IMG/VR virus record: IMGVR_UViG_3300005573_000063
Location: 32,001-96,000 of that record
DNA from: a virus
Length of the DNA stretch: 64,000 bases
Direction: 5' to 3' (one strand)
In this document: piece after piece, positions 58,433 to 60,004 of the stretch
Layout: every line of letters starts with the position of its first letter
Position numbering within the stretch: the first letter of the stretch is position 1
The notes under the pieces: generated by a model
Database searches by the model: none
The model's input: the letters and a program-made list of their open reading frames with translations, nothing else
Told to the model about the DNA's origin: nothing
Translations under genes and position numbers: made by a program

Positions 58433-58645
58433 ATGCCTCGTACAGATTGGCTGAATGATTATAGTGGGGTTCAGCGACATCTCTTCATGGCACATAATAT
58501 CCCCTTTGCGACGAATTATGATTTTCTTATAGAAACCCATCGTCATTTCCATGAAATTAACGATATACCGAGCGGCTATGCGTTCGGATATGAAAAACCT
58601 ATTACTCATTCTCACCCAGGTATGAAAGAATGGACAGCACCATGA
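58433..58645 (+). CDS. His-rich small protein, array 2
   Basis: GVQRHLFMAH...THRHFH...THSHPG. Confidence 0.75.
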   Translation: MPRTDWLNDYSGVQRHLFMAHNIPFATNYDFLIETHRHFHEINDIPSGYAFGYEKPITHSHPGMKEWTAP

Positions 58646-58854
58646 CTACAACTTCTTACACTAGAAATGGAGTAGTGAGACACCTTTTTGAATGCCATAA
58701 TGTCTCTTTTATTATGACAGGGGGGGATCTCACTTTTCTCATAAGGGATCATCGGACGGCGCATCAGTACCTTAATGAAGAGATTTTTTCAGAAGGAAGT
58801 AGGACTCCCGTGAAGCATGACCACCCCGGAATGAAAGAATGGCCAGCACGATGA
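58642..58854 (+). CDS. His-rich small protein, array 2
   Basis: GVVRHLFECH...DHRTAH...KHDHPG. Confidence 0.75.
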   Translation: MTTTSYTRNGVVRHLFECHNVSFIMTGGDLTFLIRDHRTAHQYLNEEIFSEGSRTPVKHDHPGMKEWPAR

Positions 58855-59111
58855 GTAGAAAGGTAACCAAAGATGTCGCAGAGGAGATGCAATCTCATTT
58901 AGGTGAGGGTCCTACTCTCTTTAGTCATCTTTTTTATGCGCACAATATACCCGTCGGGGCTCTGCAGACTAAGGAGGCAATGTTGCTCTATTACAACTTC
59001 CACCGAAATCTGCATGCCATTCGGCACGGAACCTTCGGATGTATGGAAGGATATCAAATTCCTATTGTTCACAGCCATCCGGGGTGGGGGGAGTGGAGGT
59101 ATAAGGAGTAA
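58851..59111 (+). CDS. His-rich small protein, array 2
   Basis: SHLFYAH...FHRNLH...VHSHPG. Confidence 0.75.
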   Translation: MSRKVTKDVAEEMQSHLGEGPTLFSHLFYAHNIPVGALQTKEAMLLYYNFHRNLHAIRHGTFGCMEGYQIPIVHSHPGWGEWRYKE

Positions 59112-59118
59112 TGGTAAA

Positions 59119-59349
59119 ATGGATAAGGAGTTTTGTGACGAAGTGGAAAATCTTAAAGATGGAGGAGTGTTCCGTCATTTAATTCGAGAACATGGGCTTA
59201 TCTCAGACAATTTGGAAGCACTAAAGCAAATTGGATTTAATGTGGGAAATATATGGTTTATTCATTTGCATGAAGAGTACCATAATTCGCCAACTAAATA
59301 TTGTACAACCCATCCTCATCCATTTCCCGAAAGGAATATACAAAATTGA
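59119..59349 (+). CDS. His-rich small protein, array 2
   Basis: GVFRHLIREH...LHEEYH...THPHPF. Confidence 0.75.
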   Translation: MDKEFCDEVENLKDGGVFRHLIREHGLISDNLEALKQIGFNVGNIWFIHLHEEYHNSPTKYCTTHPHPFPERNIQN

Positions 59350-59609
59350 AATATAATGAAAGTCCTATTTCGAACGAAATTCCTATTTCGGACCTAAAGA
59401 ATGGAGTAAGTCGTCATATAGCACGTTGTCATGGAGGTAGATACACTTTCGATGATCCTGAAAGGAGCTTTAAAGATGAAAATATATTGCATGAGAGGGA
59501 TCATAGAGAAATCTTTTTATGTGTAAATGGAAAATACCCTCACTTAAAGGGAATATGCGAGAGCGTGCGTCCTCACACTCATCCACAAAGAGGAAACGAT
59601 GGATACTAG
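59346..59609 (+). CDS. His-rich small protein, array 2
   Basis: GVSRHIARCH...LHERDH...PHTHP. Confidence 0.7.
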   Translation: MKYNESPISNEIPISDLKNGVSRHIARCHGGRYTFDDPERSFKDENILHERDHREIFLCVNGKYPHLKGICESVRPHTHPQRGNDGY

Positions 59610-59838
59610 AGAGTCAAAGAATGTGCAAGATCAAGATGGGGTGGTACGTCACCTTATTCGGAGTCATCGGTATGACTATATGTTGACAGATGAGAGGGGG
59701 CTTTATGAGAGCGCCCTTTATAATGCAAAGTTTAGTAGAAAGTTTCATAGGGCACTACATGCCATGCCTCAGCCTAACTCTCCTTTTCACACTCACCCAT
59801 TTCCGATAGAGGCACAAGATGACTCATCATCCTCCTGA
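59599..59838 (+). CDS. His-rich small protein, array 2
   Basis: GVVRHLIRSH...FHRALH...FHTHPF. Confidence 0.75.
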   Translation: MDTRESKNVQDQDGVVRHLIRSHRYDYMLTDERGLYESALYNAKFSRKFHRALHAMPQPNSPFHTHPFPIEAQDDSSSS

Positions 59839-60004
59839 TGAAATAAAAGTCCCAGTGGTACGTCATTTATGTAGAGAGCATGGGCGCAAGTATGATAATT
59901 GGGACGTAATTCTTCCCCTAGAAGAGATTTTATATCATAAGTATTGTCATGCGATACAAGTTCTCACGCATACTCATCCATTCCCAAAATTCAATCAGAA
60001 ATAG
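59819..60004 (+). CDS. His-rich small protein, array 2
   Basis: VVRHLCREH...YHKYCH...THTHPF. Confidence 0.75.
   Translation: MTHHPPDEIKVPVVRHLCREHGRKYDNWDVILPLEEILYHKYCHAIQVLTHTHPFPKFNQK

Follow-up and report, generated by a model that had tools for sequence, protein, structure and literature searches.

Four arrays of an undescribed six-histidine protein family in a large tailed phage

The stretch of viral DNA analysed here, which we call the window, comprises 64,000 nucleotides (bases 32001-96000) of the 122,096-bp IMG/VR record IMGVR_UViG_3300005573_000063, a linear sequence of a large tailed phage estimated to be 78% complete. On the forward strand of the window, at 58433-60004, lie seven tiled open reading frames (ORFs) of 61-90 amino acids (aa), each carrying three pairs of histidines, and we report that these genes form one of four arrays of a protein family that is undescribed, nearly restricted to this phage lineage and present in the record as about 50 domains. 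An earlier inspection of the window, made without database searches and referred to here as the sequence-only reading, had picked out the three His pairs shared by the seven ORFs, as well as a further array of such genes some 42 kb away on the opposite strand; both observations are borne out.

A seven-gene array and its family

In the array at 58433-60004 (array 2), neighbouring genes overlap by 16, 16, 4, 11 and 20 nucleotides (nt) and are separated at one junction by a 7-nt gap. The TTG start of copy 5 overlaps the stop codon of copy 4 as TTGA, and gene callers place the start of copy 2 at 58642 (database protein P0019). A regular expression and an alignment agree on the shared pattern: H-x4-H, H-x3-H and H-x-H follow one another in this order in 7/7 copies, within a domain of about 45-65 residues, and H16, H21, H36, H59, H61 and P62 are invariant among the seven. 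The signature that had been proposed for this array is real: a proline follows the last histidine (HxHP) in every copy, and the form GVxRH[LI] is found in five of the seven, copy 3 reading TLFSHL and copy 7 PVVRHL.

The initial count of two arrays proved too low. A profile scan of all six reading frames of the record finds four, with nine (array 1), seven (array 2), 26 (array 3) and five (array 4) copies, in addition to a singleton and at least one copy fused to a larger protein, and this brings the total to about 50 six-His domains (Table 1). The fused domain, near the N-terminus of a 2656-aa ORF, matches the family hidden Markov model (HMM) at a conditional E of 4.3e-7 and has all three His pairs. 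It is also possible, with low confidence, that a 272-aa ORF ends in a degenerate member; the regular expression matches there, where about 1.6 chance matches are expected per record, and the HMM match is weak (3.3 bits, E 0.02 against three sequences). Across the record, the three-pair motif occurs in 48 of the 1190 six-frame ORFs of at least 40 aa, against 1.56 +/- 1.04 (maximum 5) in 100 shuffles. The stand-alone genes number 48 and cover 10,234 of the 122,096 bp, or 8.4%.

All copies are intact frames, tiled with coupled start and stop codons. When the 47 array copies are aligned, five histidines (H16, H21, H36, H40 and H61) never vary and a sixth, H59, occurs in at least 90%, at a mean column identity of 16%; the full three-pair expression is retained by 44 of the 47, the remainder being three array-3 copies that lack part of HxH. 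Histidine makes up 10.2% of family residues, compared to 1.7% in 11 large genes of the phage, and is encoded by 257 CAT and 86 CAC codons; we note that the phage carries a tRNA-His(GTG) as well as this His-rich family. Cysteine averages 0.9 per copy and is conserved at no position in the 47. The copies are soluble proteins of neither strongly acidic nor strongly basic character, with a grand average of hydropathy of -0.83, a mean isoelectric point of 8.1 and a mean net charge of +1.

Table 1. Six-His copies and neighbouring features. Coordinates are those of the window unless marked as record, L002 or L014.
Feature	Coordinates	Strand	Description
Array 2 copy 1	58433-58645	+	70 aa; GVQRHL..H, HRHFH, HSHPGMKEW
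Array 2 copy 2	58630-58854	+	74 aa; 70 aa from ATGA-coupled start 58642
Array 2 copy 3	58839-59111	+	90 aa; alternative ATGA-coupled start 58851; strain-hypervariable
Array 2 copy 4	59119-59349	+	76 aa; HPHPFP tail; polymorphism hot spot
Array 2 copy 5	59346-59609	+	87 aa from TTG; most diverged copy
Array 2 copy 6	59599-59838	+	79 aa; HTHPFP
Array 2 copy 7	59819-60004	+	61 aa; HTHPFP; polymorphism hot spot
Array 1	14022-16065	-	nine paralogs; interrupted by tRNA-Cys at 14738-14814
Array 1 copies, first part	14022-14210, 14213-14413, 14392-14607, 14827-15027, 15033-15266	-
Array 1 copies, remainder	15245-15481, 15466-15666, 15651-15866, 15856-16065	-
Array 3	record 101,491-107,367	+	26 tiled copies; outside the window
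Array 4	record 2,369-3,393 (4 copies) and 5,414-5,614 (one outlying copy)	-
Singleton	record 9,321-9,554		HMM E 1.5e-5
Fused six-His domain	61578-61799	+	residues 42-115 of the 2656-aa ORF starting at 61455
Possible degenerate six-His domain	55065-55196	+	C-terminus of the 272-aa ORF 54396-55214
Promoter-like site TTGACT-17-TAGACT	58366-58394	+	in the 91-nt gap before array 2 copy 1
HNH endonuclease; BCS1-like AAA ATPase	13669-14019; 12011-13321	-	directly beside array 1
ArdC-like gene; HslV-like peptidase	L002:1594-2502; L002:22-558	-	ArdC-like gene with ArdcN and zincin-like metallopeptidase domain
Portal gene	record 107,376-110,465 (L014:77-3166)		phrog_2833, 5.5e-152; intein PF14890, 1e-10, in N-terminal part

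Descent of the arrays and variation among strains

Arrays 1 and 2 are homologous. The sequence-only reading had supposed as much and had named a profile-profile alignment as the comparison that could refute it; hhalign aligns the two arrays with a probability of 91.9% (E 7e-7, 61 columns). A profile of array 2 alone matches an array-1 copy at E 5e-5, and a profile made from the 40 copies outside array 2 recovers all seven array-2 genes, with E-values of 4.8e-7, 1.6e-6, 3.2e-4 and 2.5e-6 for copies 1-4 and of 0.022, 3e-6 and 0.022 for copies 5-7, the first unrelated ORF appearing at E 1.8. The His spacing has therefore been inherited and is not convergent.

Within array 2, pairwise amino-acid identity is 17-45%, with 30-42% among copies 1-3, 28-39% among copies 4-7 and 17-31% between these two blocks. 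In a maximum-likelihood tree of the 47 copies (87 columns), which is poorly resolved, neighbouring genes are often sisters and the array labels change only 9 times, against 19.6 in shuffles, a value as low being reached in 0 of 200 shuffles; the suggestion of local tandem duplication is thereby upheld. Array-specific clades had been anticipated for such a tree; array 2 falls into two parts on it, copies 1-3 grouping with the lone outlying array-4 copy (support 96/91) and copies 4-7 lying elsewhere, and it forms one clade in 0 of 200 bootstrap trees. In approximately unbiased tests against the quick tree, monophyly is rejected neither for array 2 (p 0.60) nor for array 1 (p 0.62). We conclude that duplication has been local and old, with no recent accordion, and that array 2 probably descends from more than one founder.

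Poxvirus K3L is a case of a gene accordion. In phage T4, the amplification of tifA against toxIN is reported as a case of gene accordion or segmental amplification (PMC9391042). The likeness to the six-His arrays would be that tandem copies of a viral gene arise by local recombination under pressure from the host, and the near-identical DNA already remarked on at the ends of the first two copies does exist (58613-58651 and 58822-58860, 85% identity over 39 nt). This junction repeat, shared by the boundaries of copies 1/2 and 2/3, is of a type that supports unequal crossing-over. Accordions, however, are recent, near-identical and unstable in copy number, whereas the six-His genes stand at four loci and share 17-45% identity in array 2, and a recent, accordion-like expansion is accordingly not supported. 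Copy 5 contains an internal 18-nt tandem duplication at 59355-59390 (89% identical, giving NESPIS/NEIPIS), a small fresh duplication inside an old gene.

Variation among related strains is concentrated in particular copies of the array. A 2158-bp metagenome contig (L003), collinear with the window over copies 1-3, is 98.7% identical to positions 57010-59167, and 26 of its 28 differences fall within the 273 bp of copy 3, leaving 2 in the other 1885 bp (Fisher p 5e-22). Those in copy 3 comprise 24 non-synonymous and 2 synonymous changes, for a ratio of non-synonymous to synonymous polymorphism (pN/pS) of 3.2; the 22 altered residues lie in loops, on the faces of predicted helix 2 that carry no His and in the tail, and helix 1 and the motif histidines are unchanged. 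In two sequencing runs, X1 and X2, contigs break in copy 4, where alternative contigs at 59178-59344 show 12 variant positions (9 non-synonymous); in X1 they also break in copy 7, where an alternative short contig over 59868-59982 shows 6 (5 non-synonymous). Taken together, the two runs show 24 variant positions across the 1572 bp of the array, 17 of them non-synonymous and 7 synonymous, whereas 2429 bp of flanking sequence hold 8, of which 2 are non-synonymous, 4 synonymous and 2 intergenic (Fisher p 6.7e-5 for the difference in density); pN/pS is 0.61 for the array and 0.15 for its flanks. A C-to-T change at 59586 converts Gln81 of copy 5 to a stop in all covering contigs of both runs, and the longer copy 5 of the window is therefore a minority allele there; the truncated protein ends right after HTHP. 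Nine variant proteins from related strains, among them a copy 1 variant that is 84% identical (P0003) and a copy 6 variant identical at 77 of 79 residues (P0013), differ by 41 substitutions, none of them at a motif His, plus one start-codon V/M artefact.

Continuing selection for both copy number and diversity had been suggested for these arrays. The strain hot spots suggest such selection for diversity; as to copy number, no variants in the form of indels or novel joints were seen in the contigs of the two runs, which cannot prove that they are absent. We also looked for a dedicated source of the variation. The reverse transcriptase family PF00078 is unmatched at E <=1 in the record (an estimated 78% complete), control genomes being matched, and blastn finds no second copy of copy 3 that could serve as a template repeat; a diversity-generating retroelement was therefore rejected. 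Gene conversion from a paralog was likewise rejected as the source of the L003 allele of copy 3, which has no second match in the record.

Relatives, predicted fold and known systems

The family matches nothing in the collections of protein families, solved structures and phage genomes that were compared. Among the 47 array copies, none reaches a curated Pfam threshold (best E 0.013, with at most two copies matching any one family) and none passes an NCBIfam threshold (best E 0.0092), and of 16 copies compared to PHROGs none gives a convincing match (best E 0.047). The family profile draws a single, non-significant match from PDB sequences, the C2H2 finger helix of 5yj3 (E 0.83). Megablast of 57000-62000 against GenBank phages and tblastn of two family members against 50,697 GenBank phages (E <=1) return no match, nor do IMG/VR scans with copy 1, the N-terminus of the 2656-aa protein and the database protein P0026. 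A scan with the large terminase, TerL, leads to five distant loci at 34-37% identity, and the family profile matches in 0 of the 5 TerL-related records; it also fails to match L012 and L005, and in L004 reaches only E 0.38 and 0.65. ESM Atlas offers no usable match, one query returning no feature match and the other at most 0.86, and the structures it matches have template-modelling scores of at most 0.6 and belong to unrelated families. A literature search covering listings and the beginnings of abstracts turned up no description of such a six-His family.

Relatives do exist outside the record, and they are rare. When 1.84 billion cluster representatives are searched exhaustively with HMMER at a cut-off of E 0.001, 35 proteins are recovered, of which 20 are identical to copies of the record, 9 are variants 84-99% identical to them and 6 are foreign. 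The foreign members come from contigs of 533-2777 bp and have one, two or three domains (two proteins each). We observe that P0012, P0025, P0026 and P0030 carry two or three six-His domains per chain, so that the module also occurs as an intramolecular repeat, and that P0025, which has a KOW-like stretch, and P0030 appear by eye to derive from high-GC organisms. In scans of genome contigs P0030 found no match, and P0025 was matched only through its KOW-like part.

The domain is predicted to be a two-helix hairpin followed by an extended HxH tail. An AlphaFold2 model of array 1 copy 9, built on a 54-row alignment (predicted local distance difference test, pLDDT, 79.4; predicted template-modelling score 0.64), has helices at residues 3-13 and 29-42, a short one at 45-50 and then the extended tail with HxH, and places the first His pair at the end of helix 3-13 and the second on helix 29-42. 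Array 2 copy 1 is modelled with the same layout (helices 12-21 and 29-41, pLDDT 67.7). Foldseek gives no match at E <=0.001 against PDB and BFVD, and VIA-align finds no chain at Z >=5 among 48,161 (best Z 3.6); its top rows include SAP, Rho N-terminal and LEM domains, at Z 3.5, 3.4 and 2.6 and with root-mean-square deviations of 2.5, 1.9 and 1.8-2.3 A over 43, 39 and 35-38 residues, respectively, all below Z 5. Histidines spaced i/i+4 or i/i+5 on helices and i/i+2 on a strand are classic paired metal-ligand geometries, as in C2H2 fingers, and to judge by its invariant His pairs and their spacings the family probably binds metal.

Three metal-binding systems offer themselves for comparison. The C2H2 zinc finger, as in TZAP (5yj3), shares an L-x-x-H-x3-5-H helix that supplies a pair of His ligands, but the six-His family has three His pairs instead of one and neither the conserved Cys pair nor the beta-hairpin; no conserved Cys occurs in the 47 copies, and one of the 47 gives a C2H2-type near-miss in Pfam (E 0.041). 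Hemerythrin/HHE domains (PF01814) likewise bear metal-binding His pairs on consecutive helices, but they are four-helix bundles of about 127 positions with conserved carboxylates, whereas two main helices make up the six-His domain, in which neither Asp nor Glu is conserved, and a single copy of the 47 approaches the family at 15.1 bits, against a gathering cut-off of 25.3 bits. The His6 site of calprotectin is an all-His transition-metal site between two subunits with an EF-hand fold. Six histidines could likewise provide an all-His, possibly octahedral, site here, although the calprotectin fold is unrelated and its site lies between subunits.

The organisation of the genes has parallels of its own. 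Both the multigene families known from large DNA viruses and the polymorphic loci for internal proteins in T-even phages comprise many diverged, clustered paralogs that vary between strains and are thought to act on the host, and the six-His genes are likewise many, small, diverged, arrayed and strain-variable; they differ in their undescribed domain, in their all-His motif and in their number, about 50 within one phage of about 150 kb. Arrays of immunity genes beside polymorphic toxins (PMC3482391) resemble the runs of small diverged paralogs beside a giant multidomain protein with HipA-like kinase domains. The six-His arrays depart from that pattern in lacking a known immunity domain, in belonging to a phage and in that two of the four lie far from the giant protein.

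Neighbouring genes and candidate functions

The phage encodes TerL, a DnaE-type polymerase, a class II ribonucleotide reductase, DnaB, a primase and RecA. Its TerL is less than 40% identical to those of GenBank phages, the best matches being Rhodococcus phage E3 and phages of Gordonia, Mycobacterium and Microcystis, and its DNA is found in two runs labelled hot-springs metagenome. Array 1 lies inside a region of minus-strand tRNA genes and adjoins the HNH endonuclease and the BCS1-like AAA ATPase; array 4 adjoins an ArdC-like anti-restriction gene (PF08401, 1.7e-38) and an HslV/proteasome-like peptidase. Array 2 immediately precedes, and array 3 immediately follows, the giant 2656-aa ORF, which spans 61455-63998 of the window and continues to base 101,425 of the record, and which encodes HipA_2 (PF20613, 4e-22) and three PI3_PI4_kinase-type stretches (PF00454, 1.2e-24). 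Array 3 ends at the intein-bearing portal gene. The placement of array 2 among head and effector genes, as first proposed, is thus half right, TerL being 10 kb upstream and the portal gene 17 kb downstream, with the multi-kinase protein as the nearest large neighbour. Another nearby ORF, of 253 aa at 56913-57674, has a catalytic-loop-like motif that is similar by eye to the giant one, and no Pfam match at E <=0.01.

We tentatively favour the view that the six-His domain is a metal-stapled mini-scaffold that has been diversified into a repertoire of host-directed binders. The six histidines (H-x4-H on helix 1, H-x3-H on helix 2 and H-x-H in the tail) would close around at least one metal ion, with Zn, Ni, Fe or Co as candidates, and by this metal a domain without the size for a real hydrophobic core would be held together and helped to stay stable at high temperature. 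Apart from the six histidines and a few hydrophobic positions the sequence can vary freely, in particular in the loop that links helices 1 and 2 (about 8-40 residues long), on those faces of helix 2 that are exposed and in the loop that precedes HxH. It is this variable surface upon a fixed His core that leads us to see in the roughly 50 copies a repertoire of small binders, whose targets would be host proteins, engaged for takeover or against defence. Such a repertoire may have been built through the old local tandem duplications and may still be diversifying between strains. We prefer this reading because it fits the fixed core and variable surface, the occurrence of the family at both early-like and late-like loci, the proximity of ArdC and kinase genes and the presence of the domain in the giant, effector-like protein.

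Several points weigh against it. The models carry no metal, and the closeness of the six histidines in space is deduced from their spacing. No known anti-defence family was matched in general scans, no anti-defence library having been searched. Positive selection is not formally shown: the non-synonymous excess in copy 3 gives p 0.07 against neutrality, the pooled pN/pS of the array is below 1, and its contrast with the flanks in non-synonymous to synonymous counts gives p 0.16. Relaxed constraint combined with recombination would yield the same pattern of variation, and L003, X1 and X2 may share their sample of origin with the window and are not independent.

The alternative closest at hand is a bulk metal sponge or metallochaperone, with which the phage would sequester or redistribute Ni, Zn, Fe or Cu in the infected cell; only the His6 site would then matter, the copies would serve dosage and the rest of the sequence would drift. 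Conservation limited to six histidines and a few hydrophobic positions, the high His content and a population pN/pS of 0.61, compatible with weak constraint outside the site, are what one would expect of such a protein, and one copy of the 47 comes near the HypB nickel-binding prefix in NCBIfam (E 0.0092, below any cut-off). Selection for dosage, however, usually keeps copies alike or relies on one strong gene, whereas these are 17-45% identical and yet open and intact at four loci. Uniform drift would also not be expected to place 26 differences within 273 bp and only 2 in a further 1885 bp, and a bulk chelator is hard to reconcile with the domain being joined to a giant kinase protein. We regard the sponge as unlikely.

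Polymorphic internal-protein genes are known from T-even phages, and the six-His proteins might similarly be packaged in the virion and injected with the DNA, the module serving as a packaging or docking tag. We consider this quite unlikely. Arrays 2 and 3 do lie on the same strand between TerL and the portal gene, and the domain at the N-terminus of the giant protein, and perhaps at the C-terminus of the 272-aa protein, would suit a shared targeting module; but arrays 1 and 4 are on the opposite strand, by tRNA genes and ArdC in an early-looking region, and the match in the 272-aa protein is weak.

A third explanation takes its cue from the giant protein itself, which combines HipA_2, PI3_PI4_kinase and an N-terminal six-His domain and is flanked directly by array 2 on its upstream side and by the 26-copy array 3 on the other. 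The small proteins could be partners, inhibitors or adaptors of the phage's own kinases, pairing with that domain so as to restrain the kinase in the producing cell or to retarget it, much as immunity-gene arrays stand beside polymorphic toxins. Some 48 partners for one protein seem excessive, however, and two arrays are distant from it; we consider this role very unlikely.

We hold it to be highly improbable that the family consists of nucleic-acid-binding regulators built on a His-only, zinc-finger-like or helix-extended-helix module. Helix 1 (LLRHLxxxH) does resemble the His helix of C2H2 fingers, the sole PDB profile match is 5yj3, and SAP, Rho N-terminal and LEM domains are among the top VIA-align rows, but all of these matches, like those of Foldseek, are below significance, a conserved basic patch is absent from proteins with a mean net charge of +1, and fifty regulators are implausible in a phage of about 150 kb. 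That the copies are decaying duplicates with no selected function, as the lack of a known match and the relaxed constraint outside the histidines might suggest, is scarcely credible given that 44 of 47 keep all six histidines at about 16% mean column identity, that the tiled frames are intact and coupled throughout and that the rare foreign relatives retain the motif, some as two or three repeats per chain.

A bolder form of the binder-repertoire reading is possible, if rather unlikely: the roughly 50 metal-stapled mini-binders might form a combinatorial library whose loops are reshuffled between strains and which is directed against many host proteins, including those of defence, with the module also docking or aiming the giant kinase effector. 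If true, this would be a new class of mini-binder scaffold that occurs in nature and is stabilised by metal, and antigen-receptor-like repertoires would have their counterpart in a phage. More generally, big expansions of one small viral module usually mark the front line with the host. Should a metal indeed staple this domain of about 60 residues, it would be a new minimal, heat-tolerant metalloprotein fold and, with about 50 natural sequence versions already tested, a useful scaffold for binders; should the proteins be aimed at the host, they would supply ready probes of how an uncultured hot-spring host is taken over and defends itself, and an example of a phage gene-family expansion that is long-lived and not transient.

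Some further features of the record deserve mention. The promoter ascribed to array 2 by the sequence-only reading is present as a site of the form described, scoring 9/12 with TG, but such sites are no more frequent than in shuffled sequence (7 found against 7.8 +/- 2.3 expected; for TTGACT-N16-18-TANNNT, 4 in the window against 3.0), and for this reason the site is a candidate only and does not constitute evidence of a promoter. From about 111.3 kb to 122,096 of the record (L014:4001-14797), GC content jumps from about 42-44% to about 70%, and this end encodes an integrase, a RecT-like protein, an exonuclease and a DNA methyltransferase; it resembles a separate, joined temperate element, and the assembly may therefore be chimeric there. 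Rfam finds only tRNAs in the window and none in array 2. ARAGORN places 21 tRNA genes at 8136-24472 of the minus strand, to which Rfam adds 13352-13428, 22675-22747 and 23675-23746. Several of those for amino acids other than Leu and Ser are unusually long (Lys 91 nt, His 88, Glu 86 and Met 85), which hints at insertions or introns.

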